A stretch of 64,000 nucleotides of DNA, taken from positions 4,337 through 68,336 of IMG/VR virus record IMGVR_UViG_3300013126_000026, one strand, 5' to 3'. Shown piece by piece: positions 2,523-36,910 of this stretch. The stretch's first letter is position 1, and every line of letters starts with the position of its first letter. The notes beneath the pieces are model-generated. The model had not been told where the DNA came from. It searched no databases and saw only the letters and a program-made list of their open reading frames with translations. The DNA comes from a virus. Both the position numbers and the translations under genes were made by a program.

Positions 2523-2729
2523 TCATAGTTCGACTCCACAAAGTTCGGTGCCATCAGGATATTGATCCCAGGCTCTACATTTTTCACTAACTGGATCTAC
2601 TAACATCCAATTCCACAAATCATCTTCAATAGACCATTTTACATACTGATCTTTGGCAATTTCATACCATCGGCCATCTTTAGGTGTTTTAGCAAACGAA
2701 TTTGTTTGTGTTACCTCTTGGTTCATCAT
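2523..2729 (-). CDS. Hypothetical protein
   Basis: ORF in gene-dense run. Confidence 0.5.
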   Translation of the reverse strand: MMNQEVTQTNSFAKTPKDGRWYEIAKDQYVKWSIEDDLWNWMLVDPVSEKCRAWDQYPDGTELCGVEL

Positions 2730-18831: not shown

Positions 18832-20188
18832 GGAATCTTACAAAACGTGGGAAACGCAAACTATATGAACCATCACGGTTTTGTGTGATAATGTCACAAA
18901 GTATTTCTACAGTGCGCCCAACAACTAGGTTACTGTCTTCCCAATATGTGTCACGATCTTCATCACTATATCCACTGCCAACATTGACTTGAATGAACTT
19001 CCCGTCATCTTCACCCTCACAAATCAATGCTCCCAATCGTCCTTTGTTACGACCAGTGCCTTCTTGTAATCCTACTACTGTAAGGTCTACTGTAATAGTG
19101 GGCTTCCATTTCATCCAAAATGTATTACGCTTACATTCATATGGGGCATCCAAATCTTTAATCATGATGCCTTCAAACCCAGCATTCACTTGATCCTTAG
19201 CATAACGCATAAGTTGATCTTTACCTGCTGCAGTGTCCAAGTCTACCATAATATGTGGTAACAATTCAACATTAGGCATATCATCAATAATTGCTCGCAT
19301 ATCCTCAAGGATTTTAATACGCTTACTTAATTGAGCGTTCCAATGTCCCTCAGAAAAAGCAACTAATGGGATAATATCAAAGATATTGAATACACTATCC
19401 TCAGCTTGAACATTTTCCTTGCGTCTTGCCTGCCGCATCAACTCCTGAAAACTATTACCAATCACTTCGCCGTCAAGTACAAAACCCATGCTAAGATTAC
19501 TTGTACCTGCTTTGCGAACAAGTTTATGAAAATTCTCGCCAATTTGTTGTTCAATATGTGTAAAGTTTTCAAATACTTTACCATTGCGACTATAACTGGT
19601 AACATGTATATCACCCTTATAGTTACCTGGGTTAACAATCATAAGTACACGAACGCCATCTAATTTTGGTTCTAGGCGTTTGGTACCGCGCATTTCAGGA
19701 CGACCTTCACTATTGGTCGCTAATTGACACCCAAATACTGGGATTTCGTAGTCAGTTCCCTTACAGATTTTATTGATTGTTTTTTCGCTAATACCACATC
19801 TTAGGTCACGACGGATGACTGGAGCACAAAAGTTATTCCATTCTATGCTATCAAATCTTTCGCTCATTTCATCAATAGCTACTAATGCTTTGTTACCTGT
19901 CAGACCACGCTGACCAAGCTCAGATAACAAGTCATCGAATTCATCCCATGGATTCTCAGCATCAGTAATGCCAACTGTGTCAGGGACTTTGCGTACTCCA
20001 AATGTTATATATGGATTGTAAGTAACTTTGGTAAGTGTAAGGAACTTGATAGCATTAATAGACCCCAATACCGCAGCCTCTAGTGCTTGTTTGATAACAT
20101 CCTCTTTGTGTAAACGACTATCGGATTCTTGTAACTTAGCGATCCACGAAGCACTCATATCTATTCCTTTTAACTTAACAATACCCAT
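18818..20188 (-). CDS. lig: ATP-dependent DNA ligase
   Basis: KLDG motif I, LDGEV, FDII, EGIMIK, KWK, SLRFPRF; true start probably MSASW. Confidence 0.95.
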   Translation of the reverse strand: MGIVKLKGIDMSASWIAKLQESDSRLHKEDVIKQALEAAVLGSINAIKFLTLTKVTYNPYITFGVRKVPDTVGITDAENPWDEFDDLLSELGQRGLTGNKALVAIDEMSERFDSIEWNNFCAPVIRRDLRCGISEKTINKICKGTDYEIPVFGCQLATNSEGRPEMRGTKRLEPKLDGVRVLMIVNPGNYKGDIHVTSYSRNGKVFENFTHIEQQIGENFHKLVRKAGTSNLSMGFVLDGEVIGNSFQELMRQARRKENVQAEDSVFNIFDIIPLVAFSEGHWNAQLSKRIKILEDMRAIIDDMPNVELLPHIMVDLDTAAGKDQLMRYAKDQVNAGFEGIMIKDLDAPYECKRNTFWMKWKPTITVDLTVVGLQEGTGRNKGRLGALICEGEDDGKFIQVNVGSGYSDEDRDTYWEDSNLVVGRTVEILCDIITQNRDGSYSLRFPRFVRFRDDK

Positions 20189-20203
20189 ATTATAGCACAG
20201 GGA

Positions 20204-21016: not shown

Positions 21017-21213
21017 TTGATTTTCGCTAACACTTCAATTGCCAAATCAGTATCATTTATAGTATCACAATAAGCTGCCATCATCATTTGATAAGCAATC
21101 TCAGCATCTGGTCCGTGTTTAGCAACAATCTTTCTAACTTCATTTTGATCCTTTGCTACCCAAAGTAAGTTAGCAATCATAGCTTGATTTTTATTTCCTA
21201 AATGAAGTTCCAT
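21013..21213 (-). CDS. Hypothetical protein
   Basis: ORF. Confidence 0.6.
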   Translation of the reverse strand: MELHLGNKNQAMIANLLWVAKDQNEVRKIVAKHGPDAEIAYQMMMAAYCDTINDTDLAIEVLAKIK

Positions 21214-21214
21214 A

Positions 21215-21940
21215 TTATAACACCTTTACACGATTAAGTTGGGTTTGATTGTCACGATGAGCCTTTACCGTACCATGGGCAACAATCAACTTGCCTGGAT
21301 CAATGGACTGCTTGTAACTGAAAAACACAGCCTGATCGTCAGTAGTCACACCACTAATAAAGTATGTATTCCATTGTTGGCTGAAGATACTACGCACCAC
21401 CTCTATATTGACACGAACCTTGTCACCAACACTACCGATAAAGCCACCAGTAGCATGTTCAAGTTTACGATTAATTGTATCACGCTTGACACCACGCTCA
21501 TAGCAACTTGGTAGACTTGCGATAATAGCAATGTCCAACATGTTTTCAATTTCATCACGGTTGCTTATGACCAACGCATTATTGTCAAACTCACTAAGAA
21601 GTTTACCTTGGAGGATCTTAAAAGTAAGCCCTTGATAATAGCTACGCACTAATTTAGCCTGCTCACGATCGGCATCGGTGATTTGACTAGGATCAGCAAG
21701 TAGTCGGGAAATAATCATACGATTAGTTTCCTTAGCTGGACCCTGTGGTGAGTTGGGTAGAATTTCTTCGGCTGCAGCGTATGAAGCTACCATTTTAACA
21801 TACCCACCGTTGATGCGTTGGGCAGCAACAGCACATACCCAAACTTCATCGGCATTGTATTTGATTTGTGTGGACTTTTTACTTGCTACTTTAGATATGT
21901 TTGCTGCTGAAAGGTTGTTGTATGACTTACGAAAGTACAT
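21215..21940 (-). CDS. Hypothetical early protein, C-terminal OB-fold-like
   Basis: GSVGDK...GTVKAH...TQLNRVK; early promoter upstream. Confidence 0.7.
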   Translation of the reverse strand: MYFRKSYNNLSAANISKVASKKSTQIKYNADEVWVCAVAAQRINGGYVKMVASYAAAEEILPNSPQGPAKETNRMIISRLLADPSQITDADREQAKLVRSYYQGLTFKILQGKLLSEFDNNALVISNRDEIENMLDIAIIASLPSCYERGVKRDTINRKLEHATGGFIGSVGDKVRVNIEVVRSIFSQQWNTYFISGVTTDDQAVFFSYKQSIDPGKLIVAHGTVKAHRDNQTQLNRVKVL

Positions 21941-31294: not shown

Positions 31295-31831
31295 TTAAAA
31301 CGACCATTCTTTATTAACACGTATGCCACCGACTAATACAAATTTGTTTTTTGTAGGCAATCCTTCATGTTCATACGCACTATTAAAGAATACAATCTTA
31401 TTTGCTTCAGGCTCAATATCAAAATAATTTATATCATTATAAAACCTAGTACTACCAACACAGCTATTTAAATACAATATAAATGAATGATCCTCGTTTT
31501 TACAATGGTTATGTTTAATTTGATATCCATCAACATATTTTATCATATGTAAATGATAAATGTCAACACTAAAGCTTAAGATTTTATTATAATATTGTTT
31601 CAAGTATTCATTAGCTAATGTCATTAATATTTGGTTGGTATTAATGTCAAATAAATGTACAATGTTAGTAGTTTGTGTTCCATTTACTGTTCCAAGACCA
31701 ACGTTGGAAGTAATTAATTTATCTTTAATAGCTAATTTATAAACTTCTTTTATCTTATTTGTGACTTGACTAGATATAAAATCAACGTATAAATTATTAC
31801 CTACAATTTTAAACATGATATATTTACACAA
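31295..31831 (-). CDS. 2OG-Fe(II) oxygenase-like protein
   Basis: HNH...SFILYLN...HEG. Confidence 0.65.
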   Translation of the reverse strand: MCKYIMFKIVGNNLYVDFISSQVTNKIKEVYKLAIKDKLITSNVGLGTVNGTQTTNIVHLFDINTNQILMTLANEYLKQYYNKILSFSVDIYHLHMIKYVDGYQIKHNHCKNEDHSFILYLNSCVGSTRFYNDINYFDIEPEANKIVFFNSAYEHEGLPTKNKFVLVGGIRVNKEWSF

Positions 31832-31956: not shown

Positions 31957-32496
31957 TCAATTATGAACTATAAACTTAAGACCTGCTTGATTAGCAATAA
32001 CTGCCCAAGCATCACTATGATCTTCGTTTACTGAAAAGCACACTGCCTGTGCTTGTGTGTTCTTTAATTGACTGTTGCCGTACTTGGCCCATTCTCTAGC
32101 AATTAATTTCCATACACCTTTATATTGACCACTAGCAGCATCATCTACCATAAGTTCAAGATATTTAGTATTATCTTCCATATAATAAAGTGGACTAACT
32201 ACAAAACTACATTCCCAATTTGGGTTGTCACGCATATTAAATACATCAATATCAAGTTCGCTAAAACGAATTTTAGGATCAGTTGTAGCCATTATAAAGA
32301 TATCATCTCGCCTTACACGAATTGGCACATTAGGATACAAACTGTTAAATGAATTTTTTACAACTTTAGCCATATATGCTGCTGCTTTCGGGGCCCAAGT
32401 TCTCATTAATTCTTGCTCCCACTCTTGGCCTAGTTTCTCGTCCATAGTGTTAGAAGCTTCATTTATAATATTAATATAGTATCGAATATCATTCAT
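31957..32496 (-). CDS. Hypothetical protein (MNDIRYYINIINEA...)
   Basis: ORF with ATAAATA upstream. Confidence 0.65.
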   Translation of the reverse strand: MNDIRYYINIINEASNTMDEKLGQEWEQELMRTWAPKAAAYMAKVVKNSFNSLYPNVPIRVRRDDIFIMATTDPKIRFSELDIDVFNMRDNPNWECSFVVSPLYYMEDNTKYLELMVDDAASGQYKGVWKLIAREWAKYGNSQLKNTQAQAVCFSVNEDHSDAWAVIANQAGLKFIVHN

Positions 32497-32517
32497 AATA
32501 ATATTTATCACAGTTTA

Positions 32518-32602
32518 CCATATTGAAACACACTCATCACACGCCGTACGGTAGGCGATCAACTCTACAGCCTGATAGGCATCAAAATGTGCTTCAATAT
32601 GG
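32518..32602 (-). ncRNA. Closing-stem RNA unit 1
   Basis: 17-bp stem CCATATTGAAGCACATT/AGTGTGTTTCAATATGG around a 51-nt core. Confidence 0.6.
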
Positions 32603-32918
32603 CGCCAGTCCCTAAACTGGCTTCATATTATCTTCTGTGTCTTGGACGACGGTCCTCAGGTCTCGAAATCCGTATGCGAAGTCCACCATCACTCGCATAT
32701 TTTAGTTGACGGGGCTTACACCCGCCTCGACCAAGTAAGCCGCTAACTCTAGGGATTTGAGCAACAGGCTTGTCGGGACTAATTTTTTAAATATAGTTGC
32801 CGGTTACAAAATCCGGCGTTACACTTTCGGAGTAACTGTTCTACCTATCCCGCCACCGACTTCGTTTAAGACTCGCCGCCTTTATACACGCTGATAGCCA
32901 CGTGTTCTGGTATTGTTA
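32603..32918 (-). ncRNA. GC-enriched structured non-coding block, probably two RNAs
   Basis: No ORF; hairpins GCCAGT/ACTGGC, ATGCGAG/TTCGCAT, GCCGG/CCGGC, GTTAC/GTAAC, ACACG/CGTGT. Confidence 0.5.
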
Positions 32919-33040
32919 CCATATTGAAACACACTACACTATTTGCTATGCTCATGCGGAATAGTCTAGAATTACCGCAATTATGTACATAGTTACTCAG
33001 GCATGATCAAGCCCATGGCTTGCAATGTGCTTCAATATGG
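32919..33040 (-). ncRNA. Closing-stem RNA unit 2
   Basis: Same 17-bp stem as unit 1 around a different 88-nt core. Confidence 0.6.
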
Positions 33041-33170
33041 TGACAGTCTTTCCCGTCTGTCAATAACGTCAATGTTACACCTGTATTTCTCATATCACTA
33101 TTGCAGATATGCAGTTCCCTGATTACCAAGCCACCAGTTAAGGGAGACGTTATCTCCACCCATCAATCCA
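33041..33170 (-). ncRNA. Structured RNA downstream of tRNA-Asp
   Basis: ATAACGTC/GACGTTAT closes a junction; 3' hairpin TGACAG/CTGTCA followed by CCA. Confidence 0.5.
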
Positions 33171-33175
33171 AACTT

Positions 33176-33250
33176 TGGCGATCCCGCGGGGAATCGAACC
33201 CCGATATCCGACTAGACAGGCCGGTATAATAACCACTATATGACGAGACC
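33176..33250 (-). tRNA. tRNA-Asp(GTC)
   Basis: Cloverleaf, loop CTGTCTA, CCA. Confidence 0.88.
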
Positions 33251-33255
33251 ATGTT

Positions 33256-33329
33256 TGGCATCCCGGGAGGGATTCGAACCCCCACAAACAGTTTTGGAGA
33301 CTGCTATGCTACCATTACACCACCGAGAC
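33256..33329 (-). tRNA. tRNA-Trp(CCA)
   Basis: Cloverleaf, loop CTCCAAA, CCA. Confidence 0.9.
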
Positions 33330-33341
33330 ATTGTTTGGAAC

Positions 33342-33950
33342 TTACCAGTGCTTTATTCTTTCAAGCAATTCATTTATAGTAATAGAATTCTTTTCTCGTT
33401 TACTTTGATTTTGTCGATGCAACATAAGTTTGCAGTTGGCAGGATGTTTAATGATTTCAGGATCTATTCCCAATTCAAATCCAGTCCTAACACTAACCAT
33501 ATGATCTTTTGATACACCGTTAAGATTGTTGCCTTTATTACTAGGACTATACCATCCGTATTGTTCGACTAGCATCAATTCGAATTTATTTGGATAGTCT
33601 TTAATATTAAAATCAAAATTACATCTTTGTCTGTACAAAATAAACGGTTGTTTGGTTTTTTCCGTATACTCAATCCAACATTTAGACGAACAAAATTTTT
33701 TATTAAAATGCGTCTTGTTGCACTCTAAACATTTTTTCTCAATTTTATTTTTTCTGTTAAAATTATTACCAAGTTCTATATTTTTAATATGCTCAGAGGA
33801 CAACTTTCTTCCAAAGAGTTTATTGGATACTTTTTGATTAATTTCCTGTCTCTTACTTTTAGTTGAGTAACCACGAGCACACTTAAGACTACAAAATCTT
33901 CCTGATCCATAATCACCATTATGGTGATTTTTACAATTTTCACAAATCAT
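33342..33950 (-). mobile_element. Free-standing HNH homing endonuclease with zinc fingers
   Basis: CxxC...FCSxxC twice; DH...HPAN...N...K; lies between two tRNAs. Confidence 0.78.
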
Positions 33951-33992
33951 TTGAACCCTCGCTTTTTATATATTTAGCATAAGTTCGTAATC

Positions 33993-34078
33993 TGGAGTGA
34001 GCGACAGGACTCGAACCTGCATTACCTTTCGGTGTTACGGATTTGCAATCCGGTGCGTCGCCATTCCGCCACGCTCAC
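33993..34078 (-). tRNA. tRNA-Cys(GCA) with long variable arm
   Basis: Loop TTGCAAA, U73, extra ACC-GAAA-GGT arm, CCA. Confidence 0.85.
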
Positions 34079-34087
34079 ATTAACATT

Positions 34088-34162
34088 TGGTAGGGGCAGC
34101 AGGGATTGAACCTGCGACCTCGATGTTAAAAGCATCTTGCTCTACCTCTGAGCTATACCCCC
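34088..34162 (-). tRNA. tRNA-Lys(TTT)
   Basis: Cloverleaf, loop CTTTTAA, CCA. Confidence 0.9.
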
Positions 34163-34193
34163 AAATAATTCTTTACATCTAATACAATAATGC

Positions 34194-34281
34194 TGGTGGG
34201 TGCTGATGGTAACGCTCCACGAACTCAACTTCCCATCTCTCAGAGTAACGGTTTTACAGACCGCCGACGGGGGCAACACCC
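34194..34281 (-). ncRNA. Non-canonical tRNA-Tyr(GTA)-like RNA lacking a D arm
   Basis: GGGTGTT/AGCACCC acceptor plus ACCA; anticodon hairpin GCGGT-CTGTAAA-ACCGT; T-loop replaced by AGCGTTA. Confidence 0.7.
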
Positions 34282-34295
34282 TTATTCTTTACATA

Positions 34296-34364
34296 CCATA
34301 TTATAGCACACTACTCATCGGTATACATCACCATTTGACTGTTCGGCAATGTGCTATAATATGG
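34296..34364 (-). ncRNA. Closing-stem RNA unit 3
   Basis: CCATATTATAGCACATT/AGTGTGCTATAATATGG, a compensatory variant of units 1-2. Confidence 0.6.
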
Positions 34365-34437
34365 GTACACCGTACGGGAGTCGAACCCATCTTTGCGCCT
34401 TGAAAGGGCGCCGTCCTAACCGATAGACGAACGGTGC
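34363..34437 (-). tRNA. tRNA-Glu(TTC)
   Basis: Cloverleaf, loop CTTTCAA. Confidence 0.9.
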
Positions 34438-34502
34438 GTATGTACATCAATTGTTAAAGATCCTGTTTACACTGAATTGCGTACAACTCAGTCAATAAAA
34501 GC

Positions 34503-35359: not shown

Positions 35360-35977
35360 TCAGAAATCTTTTACCAAAACACTAACACTACTATCACCGT
35401 TGCCTAATAATCCAACTGGGTAAAAGTTATAAGCAATACTATGTCTTATACTATTACTATCGTTAAGTCCTATTCTATGACTTAAATAGCTTGGAAAAAA
35501 CGCAATCAAATTACTTTGATATTGTAATATAAACTTATCAGAATTATATGTGTTATTAAATTCAGGGACAATGAAAAACTGCGAACCATGTGTATTCTCA
35601 AACTCTAAATTGCTTGGTTTATCTATGTTTTCCCAATACACAATACCACTATAATAACAATTCTTATGTGTATGAAACTGACTATATCCTTGTGGCAAAG
35701 TTTTAGTTGCCCAAGATGTAGTCATAACAAATTCAGTATTAGTTAATTTTAATACTTTGTTTTTAAAATCAGTAAAATAATTACAAATAATGTTCTTAAT
35801 GTTTGGAAAACTATCTAGTAAACGGAAATCTTTTGATACACTTGCTAGATAACTCCCATCGTTTCCCTTATCATTAAATTCACAATCTACAACGTTATGT
35901 AGTTCAGAGAGGTCTTCAGTGACTTTATAAGTGCCTAGTACTGAAGGGAAAAGTGGGTAAACAATACATTTATTCAT
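35360..35977 (-). CDS. 2OG-Fe(II) oxygenase (TIGR02466-like)
   Basis: SWAT, HTH, SGIVY, FPSYLSH, RHSIAYN. Confidence 0.85.
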   Translation of the reverse strand: MNKCIVYPLFPSVLGTYKVTEDLSELHNVVDCEFNDKGNDGSYLASVSKDFRLLDSFPNIKNIICNYFTDFKNKVLKLTNTEFVMTTSWATKTLPQGYSQFHTHKNCYYSGIVYWENIDKPSNLEFENTHGSQFFIVPEFNNTYNSDKFILQYQSNLIAFFPSYLSHRIGLNDSNSIRHSIAYNFYPVGLLGNGDSSVSVLVKDF

Positions 35978-36271: not shown

Positions 36272-36910
36272 CTACTTATATGGGGGTCCAAGTGCCCATA
36301 TTACAATACTTTTTCTTACACCACTAAGTACAGGTTGAACTCTATGAAACATAAAACTTGGAAAGAAAATCACAGTTCCTTTTTCCTGAGTAATTTTTTT
36401 AGGGTCTAAAGGGTCATCTAATAATTCAAATTCACCACCTGAATATTCAGTACTATCACTAAGTACAATTGATAATGATAATTTTCTAGTATAATGTACT
36501 TCACTAGTTAATGGTGTACCTAATGGACAATCAGTATGCCAATTATAATAATCATTTACACCATAAGTAGTATACTGAAAATGATCATACCCAACTAAAT
36601 CAAACCCAAAGTAATCATTATTGATAGCTTCACAAATTTGAAACGTTTTTTGAAAAAACCAACTTGTTTCATTATTCATTGTGTGAAACTTTATCTTAGA
36701 TTTTCTAGGTTTTTCTTCATATGTTAGTGTAGGTTTACTTATAATGTTAATCGTATCAGTTAATACTGTAGAACCTGCGCTATTGTCTAATAAATTTTTA
36801 TCACAATAGTCACGTATTTTATCTAATTCATCAACAGTAAAAAATTTATTGCCAACAATAAATGCTGGCAATATTCTACCACGCAAATACACATTACTTG
36901 TTAATGTCAT
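36272..36910 (-). CDS. 2OG-Fe(II) oxygenase (PKHD/P4H-like)
   Basis: YNWHTD, RKLS, YSGGEF, FPSFMFHRV.PV..G.RKS. Confidence 0.9.
   Translation of the reverse strand: MTLTSNVYLRGRILPAFIVGNKFFTVDELDKIRDYCDKNLLDNSAGSTVLTDTINIISKPTLTYEEKPRKSKIKFHTMNNETSWFFQKTFQICEAINNDYFGFDLVGYDHFQYTTYGVNDYYNWHTDCPLGTPLTSEVHYTRKLSLSIVLSDSTEYSGGEFELLDDPLDPKKITQEKGTVIFFPSFMFHRVQPVLSGVRKSIVIWALGPPYK

Follow-up and report, generated by a model that had tools for sequence, protein, structure and literature searches.

A viral sequence of 64,000 nucleotides (the window; bases 4337-68336 of the 68,336-bp IMG/VR virus record IMGVR_UViG_3300013126_000026) contains a transfer RNA (tRNA) island in which three small RNA genes, here called units, are each closed by a long terminal helix. 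The helix is conserved and covarying in related phages, and often begins at the CCA end of the preceding tRNA. We favour, with moderate confidence, the reading that the units are small RNAs co-transcribed with the tRNAs and that the helix of about 20 bp serves as a clamp for processing and stability, with host RNase III as the probable nuclease. The units lie on the minus strand, as do all 26 tRNA genes called by ARAGORN in the window (26/26).

32518..32602, minus strand: unit 1; 5' arm 32602-32586, core 32585-32535 (51 nt, family F10), 3' arm 32534-32518
32919..33040, minus strand: unit 2; 5' arm 33040-33024, core 33023-32936 (88 nt, family F4), 3' arm 32935-32919
34296..34364, minus strand: unit 3; 5' arm 34364-34348 (variant UAUAGCAC), core 34347-34313 (35 nt, family F0), 3' arm 34312-34296

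A pattern search allowing up to three mismatches located six arm copies in the window, exactly the arms of units 1-3, against 0.42 expected by chance; six or more copies were reached in 0 of 100 shuffles. The same three arm pairs were recovered independently by an inverted-repeat search of the window. The original prediction had proposed these three units, and the pattern search reproduced exactly its coordinates, the identity of the arms of units 1 and 2, and the core sizes of 51, 88 and 35 nt. Half-site arm matches at 20185-20201 and 21210-21226 were dismissed as chance, since both lie inside open reading frames (ORFs) and have no partner.

Each unit folds into a single long closing stem around a structured core. 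In all three, the fold is more stable on the minus strand than on the plus strand (unit 1, -37.4 vs -26.4 kcal/mol; unit 2, -50.1 vs -46.1; unit 3, -30.0 vs -24.1), with minus-strand z-scores of -3.7, -5.6 and -4.5, respectively. The difference arises because G-U pairs turn into A-C mismatches on the plus strand, and it agrees with the earlier claim of minus-strand pairing. The stem of unit 3 deviates at positions 8, 9 and 11, and the partner base is changed each time, which bears out the compensatory changes that had been predicted. One extra base pair sits under the stem of unit 1 (G32603 with U32517, G-U) and of unit 2 (A33041 with U32918, A-U). The three cores are mutually unrelated, as had also been proposed, and fall into the separate clusters F10, F4 and F0.

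In IMG/VR, at least 119 viral loci carry an exact copy of the 17-nt 5' arm, and 112 of them contain one complete unit or more. The partner arm lies within 345 nt in 136 of the 143 occurrences; three are cut by the locus end and four are unpartnered. Bacterial and archaeal genomes totalling 596 Gb contain this 17-mer 40 times, and a partner arm is near none of the copies (0/40). The 50,697 named phage records yielded no real unit; a 30-nt arm query against them at E values up to 10 gave nine short chance matches. Complete genomes of 344 kb, 400 kb and 150 kb carry one to three canonical units each, and their DNA ligases are, relative to that of the window, 55% identical, 45% identical and undetectable. 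Judged by these comparisons, the arm sequence is far better conserved than the proteins.

We described the anatomy of the units on 269 instances, 221 of them unique. An ARAGORN tRNA precedes 102 of the 269, and its own 3' CCA forms the first three bases of the arm in 100 of these 102. A conserved U follows the 3' arm and pairs with the base that precedes the CCA, as A-U in 134 and as G-U in 36 of the 221 unique units; the discriminator (N73) is therefore paired too, and the helix starts at N73 with at least 18 bp. Upstream contexts other than tRNAs show a hairpin of at least 5 bp ending 0-2 nt before the CCA in 54 of 106 unique cases against 19 of 106 shuffled ones, counting units of clear orientation with at most two stem mismatches. 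Among the orientable canonical-arm units, 220 of 237 lie on the majority tRNA strand.

Over the 221 unique units, the pairs at stem positions 7-9, 11-14 and 16 switch from one Watson-Crick type to another via G-U intermediates. Stem length, core G+C and motifs were counted on the 207 units of up to 190 nt with at most two stem mismatches. The contiguous closing stem has a modal length of 17-20 bp, the discriminator pair being additional, and mean core G+C is 49%, compared with mostly 20-35% in the ORFs of the same genome. In canonical arms, 217 unique cores spanning about 25-150 nt form 150 clusters, of which 118 are singletons. With about 150 core clusters on one arm pair, the earlier wording of exchangeable modules on a common stem is a fair description.

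At the stem/core junction of unit 1 (32535-32585, minus strand), we notice a possible K-turn-like motif with a UUU bulge, tandem G-A, a U-U pair and UGAUG on both strands. It is kept in the unit-1 family only, and the K-turn-like pattern is not general (6/207 units vs 4.1 expected). The T-loop-like motif GUUCRANNC, present in 16 of 207 cores, is likewise not general.

The architecture extends beyond one arm sequence. Among unique tRNA-CCA contexts of the loci, 116 of 1195 open a hairpin with at least 15 of 16 positions paired, as do 5 of about 1198 random positions. A score of at least 14/16 is reached by 133 contexts, and 50 of these have arms that are off canonical at three or more of the 16 positions, still compensated. 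An A/U-rich stem base in non-canonical arms is an impression by eye only. Six other phages (T4, a 635-kb uncultured phage, S-SRM01, vB_OspM_OC, DU_PP_V and a Vibrio phage) together have 81 tRNAs, of which one scores 15/16 and one 14/16; the CCA-initiated hairpin design is not a general phage feature. The tRNAs followed by a unit are skewed in type, in raw counts that ignore shared ancestry: Glu 26/74, Lys 15/59, Tyr 9/46 and Leu 20/109, also some Ile and Gln, against 0/527 for Val, Asp, Ser, Met, Ala, Phe, His and Trp. Several of the favoured types are known targets of anticodon nucleases.

An arm-blind sample was drawn by scanning with a 16-nt invariant piece of the unit-2 core, which gave 112 loci; 85 with a core match of at least 60 nt were kept and 27 dropped. 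Canonical arms enclose the core in only six of the 85, and 37 distinct arms were seen overall. The 36 other 5'-arm 17-mers represent ten or more unrelated types, and each of them pairs at 19-24 of the 24 positions. In an alignment of this family (A1; 11 sequences with five stem types, from 13 matches with 2 duplicates dropped), 17 of the 24 closing pairs show changes on both sides and 95.5% of cells are paired. Its covariation score is 0.503, compared with 0.190 in shuffles (reached by 0/500) and at most 0.119 in slid controls. The arms are thus conserved and covarying in relatives and, together with the stem statistics of the 221 units, alignment A1 upholds the earlier view of the closing stem as an RNA-level helix. 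The sequence of this strand-specific helix is able to vary; its pairing is kept. Closing stems of the unit-2 family measure 21-24 bp; its members are co-oriented with the tRNAs in 84 of 84 cases and fused to a tRNA CCA in 38 of 85 (32 Glu, 4 Asn, 2 Leu).

The other two cores behave similarly. Related IMG/VR loci are labelled L009-L127, and L065 is the closest relative of the window. An eight-member alignment of the unit-1 family shows covariation in the closing stem and an inner hairpin with seven covarying pairs; homologous cores occur with other arms in L122 and L125. The unit-3 core is enclosed by unrelated complementary arms in L046. In L074, a core 96-99% identical to canonical-armed cores has wholly different arms, which points to replacement by recombination rather than gradual drift. 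These comparisons show that stems and cores reassort as separate modules. Their separate recombination between phages would explain why a single arm pair encloses about 150 core clusters and why a single core is found in 37 stems.

L065 is 92-96% identical to the window and keeps all three units, with other modules swapped between or after them; the breakpoints fall exactly at RNA-gene borders (32917/32918 and 32787). In related loci the same core is found with different neighbours on both sides. L065 also has a fourth, diverged unit (2545-2627, minus strand; arms UUAUAUUAAAACACAUU / AGUGUGUUUAAAUAUGA), located after a non-tRNA RNA; the matching region of the window holds a 184-amino-acid ORF (31957-32511).

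The units are packed among further RNA genes and ORFs of the island, listed here.

34612-34584 and 34531-34503, minus strand: two sigma-70-type promoter-like sites upstream of tRNA-Glu
34364..34437, minus strand: tRNA-Glu (UUC), called by ARAGORN, 54.8 bits with the Rfam tRNA model; its 3' end runs directly into the 5' arm of unit 3
34194-34281, minus strand: X3, an 88-nt tRNA-like RNA called by neither ARAGORN nor the Rfam tRNA model
33041..33175, minus strand: X2, a non-tRNA RNA (135 nt) upstream of unit 2; ends in a 5-bp hairpin plus A, then the CCA opening unit 2
32797..32918, minus strand: X1 module A, a non-tRNA RNA directly after unit 2
32603..32778, minus strand: X1 module B, a non-tRNA RNA upstream of unit 1; ends in a hairpin plus G, then the CCA opening unit 1
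31295-31831, 35360-35977 and 36272-36910, minus strand: three 2OG-Fe(II) oxygenase-family ORFs, which alternate with tRNA genes

Read along the minus strand, the order is two promoters, tRNA-Glu, unit 3, X3, tRNA-Lys, tRNA-Cys, an HNH-type ORF, tRNA-Trp, tRNA-Asp, X2, unit 2, X1 module A, X1 module B, unit 1, an ORF and tRNA-Ser. The promoter-like sites read TTGACA-17-TATAAT (12/12) and TTGACA-17-TAAAAT (11/12), and both are kept in L065. No terminator-like site was found on the minus strand between 31700 and 34800.

In the window, unit 3 is joined to tRNA-Glu as ...GUGUA-C-CCAUAUU, with one surplus C between the discriminator and the CCA. Positions 34362-34366 (minus strand) read A-C-C-C-A after the acceptor stem, compared with A-C-C-A in L065, which carries unit 3 with the exact junction GUGUA-CCA. 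Owing to the surplus C, the CCA of tRNA-Glu is not encoded in register in the window. The original prediction placed each CCA directly after an upstream RNA. This stands for units 1 and 2 (hairpin-G-CCA and hairpin-A-CCA, respectively), and in unit 3 it holds exactly in L065 and is offset by the extra C in the window.

X2 is conserved at 87-96% in L055, L065, L071 and L080. X1 modules A and B are G+C-rich and together make a 316-nt non-coding stretch; they recur independently in many related contigs, and neither has an Rfam match. Module B stands as an independent module in L017, L047, L065, L068, L071 and L111. Alignments of module A to nine loci (L011, L012, L013, L024, L063, L068, L093, L107 and L121) all end at 32787. 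A unit follows module A in eight of the nine, where the window instead has the degenerate 18-nt stretch CUAUAUUUAAAAAAUUAG (32796-32779); L065 carries a similar stretch ahead of module B. The stretch in the window may be a collapsed unit, or a leader resembling the first 7 nt of the arm.

X3 has an 8-bp acceptor-type stem ending in A-CCA and leaves no room for a D arm. Its long arm ends in a 7-nt loop, CUGUAAA, in which GUA occupies the anticodon positions; no tRNA-Tyr is called in the window. It is kept in L065, and in L042 it is kept with a unit attached. The 202-amino-acid ORF inside the island (33342-33950, minus strand) matches phrog_23051, of unknown function. By eye it shows Cys-rich and D-H...N...H motifs typical of HNH homing endonucleases, and it is missing from L065 and from all four sequencing runs compared.

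The 68,336-bp record has a CheckV completeness of about 20%, which indicates a jumbo phage. This phage is without a close cultured relative. Megablast of the window against the 50,697 named phage records gave no match, and blastn gave only tRNA-sized matches among the 30 listed of 92 records. The ATP-dependent DNA ligase of the window is at most 35% identical to that of any named phage. At least 272 IMG/VR stretches encode relatives of this ligase, the best 80 being 73-90% identical; the window belongs to an abundant uncultured phage clade.

Four public sequencing runs contain 5-8% of the sampled words, and two of them are metatranscriptomes. RNA-library contigs cover X1 (32636-32915) and all of unit 2, and a 208-nt contig among them spans 32897-33042 with one mismatch. 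The highest depth of the stretch compared (88-168) is at X1 module B in a riverine metatranscriptome. We also notice that the sequencing-run bins without cover coincide with ORF regions (33394-33961 and 32400-32470), and that the riverine run has an adapter-like loose end at 32629.

We searched for protein partners in five unit-bearing phage records, three of them at least 99% complete, with domain profiles whose positive controls matched in every search. TROVE/Ro60 (PF05731), RtcB and RVT_1 (PF00078) were found in 0/5 records, and so were RNase III and the double-stranded RNA-binding domain (dsrm/dsRBD). Phage_integrase (PF00589) and Y1_Tnp (PF01797) were also found in 0/5, other transposase families not being searched. 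The TROVE result covers phage records only, and a host may encode Ro60. The ORFs adjoining the units have no reverse transcriptase domain.

At the gathering threshold, Rfam models found 25 tRNAs in the window and nothing else. A cmscan of 32400-34500 at E values up to 10 gave tRNAs and chance-level microRNA-type matches to the hairpin only, so that no known family matches the units in this region; in 14 related loci, all of the 150 matches listed of 211 were tRNAs. The likeness to Y RNAs and retrons that the original prediction had raised finds no backing in these searches. A guide function against the phage's own genes also lacks support, since the best core complementarity within the window is 9-11 nt and no better than that of shuffled cores (10.6-11.6 nt). 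The 14-nt arm strings were found in no paper, and the design is not described in the literature found by keyword. The accessible part of one survey reports 8495 candidate structured RNAs from IMG/VR and does not describe this design among its tRNA-like candidates, although its supplementary tables may hold members (PMC10690425).

Based on these observations, we propose the following route. The unit genes, embedded in a polycistronic tRNA island, would be transcribed on the tRNA strand from host-type promoters. Both ends of each RNA are locked in the terminal helix of about 18-24 bp, which in roughly half of cases starts precisely at the discriminator-CCA of a preceding tRNA or tRNA-like RNA. 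Such a long perfect double-stranded RNA (dsRNA) helix would be the expected substrate of host RNase III, as in the processing stems of ribosomal RNA (rRNA) and intervening sequences. A cut within the stem would release the small RNA on both sides, from the tRNA ahead of it and from the RNA behind it; exonucleases would then trim the tRNA 3' end back to CCA, and RNase P would make the 5' end of the downstream RNA. The leftover stem may shield both ends of the released core RNA from exonucleases, and the cores, with their many unrelated and individually conserved folds, would be the functional cargo. Fusing the helix to N73-CCA would remove the single-stranded spacer, one cut serving both RNAs. 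The repeated stems could in turn become recombination sites, leading to the mosaic pattern in which one arm pair is spread over many core clusters.

Bacterial RNase III cleaves dsRNA of about 20 bp. The helices observed, 17-20 bp plus the N73 pair and 21-24 bp in the unit-2 family, have the length of a processing stem, which is about 20 bp of dsRNA or more around a released RNA. Given that neither RNase III nor a dsRBD protein is encoded in the five phage records, the host enzyme is the default. The original prediction had suggested a constant protein-binding or RNase III-processing scaffold. RNase III processing is indeed the most plausible use of an 18-24 bp helix; a constant, sequence-specific scaffold does not hold, as the unit-2 core is rarely canonical-armed and the cores of units 1 and 3 also occur in other arms.

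Several points weigh against the processing and stability clamp. The exact 17-nt arm is kept across phages whose ligases are 45-55% identical or undetectable, which a plain processing stem leaves unexplained. CCA fusion, found in only 38 of 85 unit-2-type RNAs, is not obligatory, so coupling to tRNA 3' maturation is not the whole purpose. Only about 7% of the tRNAs in the loci (102/1419) have a unit behind them and their types are skewed, where a general processing role predicts otherwise. The cover from RNA libraries consists of assembled contigs, which are blind to ends and strand and may include DNA. The data themselves establish the structure and strand of the units, their junction geometry, their conservation and absence from other collections, and the reassortment of modules. 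Transcription as a single precursor, cleavage by RNase III, the protective role and any function of the cores are what we infer, and the presence of RNase III in the host is assumed. Since the arm conservation across distant phages and the tRNA-type skew are left unexplained, readings based on a protein handle, a tRNA mask or a recombination module stay alive.

The helix, above all the canonical arm pair, may be a ribonucleoprotein handle that binds a specific phage or host protein and presents the cores as decoys, sponges or aptamers, like Ro60 with Y RNAs. The exact arm in at least 119 loci, including genomes with a 55%, 45% or undetectable ligase, exceeds what structure alone requires, and about 150 unrelated core clusters on one arm pair would suit such a role. 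However, we consider it unlikely: the unit-2 core is canonical-armed in 6/85 with 37 arms seen, cores 1 and 3 have other arms too, and the fully paired helix offers no conserved bulge or loop for specific recognition. TROVE and dsrm are absent from the five records, and the cores share no stem-adjacent motif, the K-turn-like pattern being at 6/207 vs 4.1 expected. Alternatively, the inverted repeats could act at the DNA level, as homology or hairpin linkers that drive cassette shuffling, with the RNA hairpin as a by-product. The mosaic islands with breakpoints at RNA-gene borders (32917/32918, 32787) between the window and L065, the single cores with differing neighbours on either side, the independent assortment of arms and cores (the L074 core being 96-99% identical with other arms) and the HNH endonuclease gene inside the island are all in line with it. 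The strong strand bias and a G-U pattern specific to the tRNA strand argue otherwise, as do the one to three canonical units per complete genome and the absence of tyrosine recombinase and Y1 transposase from the five records (0/5). The cores are moreover conserved, G+C-rich and covarying, which indicates RNA-level selection on them, and shuffling can result from repeated stems without being their purpose. We regard such a recombination module as a little less likely still.

The helix might also act in cis as a mask of the upstream tRNA 3' end, sequestering the discriminator and CCA so as to delay or control maturation or charging, or to shield the acceptor end, the core being a spacer or timer. 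The helix takes in N73 and CCA in 170 of the 221 units, an exact junction is seen in 100 of 102 cases, and units stand behind the Glu, Lys, Tyr and Leu types and behind 0/527 of the eight types named above. Yet no tRNA precedes 47 of 85 unit-2-family and 167 of 269 canonical-arm units, the tRNA-type counts ignore shared ancestry, and the cores are conserved, structured and diverse, as a spacer need not be; we find this quite doubtful. A retron-, integron attC- or miniature inverted-repeat transposable element (MITE)-like element, non-autonomous and mobile or reverse-transcribed with the inverted repeats as its ends, is very improbable. It fits the form loosely, with inverted repeats around a variable 25-150 nt centre and a presence that differs between relatives. 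Against it, RVT_1, Phage_integrase and Y1_Tnp are in 0/5 records including three complete genomes, copy number is low (one to three canonical units per complete genome), the units are confined to tRNA islands in a single orientation, and a partner arm accompanies 0/40 of the bacterial-genome matches.

The closest precedents of the units sit in phage T4, whose stable RNAs RNAC and RNAD (species 1 and 2) are described in the accessible part of one source as having unknown biological roles (PMC3014915). Like the units, they are small RNAs encoded within the tRNA cluster of a phage, in the same direction as the tRNAs and close against them. They have tRNA-like ends, and their closest likeness is to the hairpin-N-CCA X RNAs ahead of units 1 and 2. 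Unlike the units, the T4 RNAs have no terminal helix that opens with the CCA of the RNA before it (12/16 is the highest score among the 8 T4 tRNAs), no common arm family and no evidence of stem/core reassortment. No homology of the units to rnaC or rnaD was seen, the named-phage searches giving tRNA matches only among the rows listed. As T4-type stable RNAs, the units fit in position and strand, and their stability is only hinted at by the RNA-library contigs.

RNase III processing stems are known from bacterial rRNA operons, 23S intervening sequences and T7 early RNA. There, as in the units, the two flanks of a functional RNA in a polycistronic precursor come together as a long helix, which is required for its structure and not for its sequence and evolves by compensation. 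The units differ in that their stems flank many unrelated RNAs of 25-150 nt, that their helix starts at a tRNA CCA, and that one helix sequence is found on about 150 core clusters across distant phages; their cleavage, moreover, is a proposal. Murine gammaherpesvirus 68 has a tRNA-like gene directly followed by pre-microRNA hairpins. In both settings a tRNA is directly followed by a stem-loop RNA in one transcript, which for the units would be the proposed precursor, and tRNA 3' processing sets the 5' end of the viral hairpin. That eukaryotic virus, however, relies on pol III, tRNase Z and Dicer and has simple hairpins, in contrast to the bacterial setting of the units, with an encoded and paired CCA and large, structured cores.

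In Y RNA and YrlA, as in the units, a long stem made by pairing of the two RNA ends encloses a variable module, which in some cases is tRNA-like, and the T-loop-like motif of 16 of 207 unit cores adds to the likeness; the units differ by the absence of TROVE from the five phage records and of any Rfam match, and by a perfectly paired and interchangeable stem. The terminal inverted repeats of the units (17-24 bp) resemble the a1/a2 repeats of retron msr-msd, a feature that is not retron-specific, and unlike in retrons no reverse transcriptase lies near the units or in the five records. Correia repeat-enclosed elements of Neisseria, as the accessible part of one source describes them, are short, bounded by inverted repeats and form an RNase III-binding hairpin when transcribed (PMC2649163). 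The same source portrays them as high-copy DNA transposable elements with a conserved core in either orientation, whereas the units are low-copy, with a single orientation and a variable core. The many copies in both orientations that mark MITE and Correia elements contrast with one to three units per genome, 220/237 and 84/84 of them in one orientation.

Small RNAs embedded in the tRNA clusters of phages are thus known, as are RNAs that lie between processing stems; what is unusual is the stem-core modularity, which would make a new category if a dedicated function is shown. Ever since T4, phage tRNA clusters have been known to encode small stable RNAs, and a widespread environmental group of jumbo phages carries a far larger set of them. 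A simple rule makes such RNAs recognisable, their long terminal helix being in many cases fused to the CCA of a tRNA, and it offers a way to search viral metagenomes for hundreds of new structured RNAs. They also give a natural example of stem and core evolving as separate modules, and a concrete, testable link between tRNA 3' processing and the release of phage small RNAs. Only tentatively do we speculate that this phage clade keeps combinatorial RNA cassettes, in which interchangeable helices of about 20 bp, one of them with about 150 core clusters, reassort freely with a large and quickly changing stock of structured cores and are docked to the CCA of tRNA-Glu, Lys, Tyr or Leu. Such a plug-and-play scaffold would present RNAs as decoys or aptamers against factors of the host, for example defences that target tRNAs, the release of these RNAs being tied to tRNA processing. 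Should the cores turn out to be decoys or regulators, the Glu, Lys, Tyr and Leu skew would tie the units to the question of why phages carry tRNAs.

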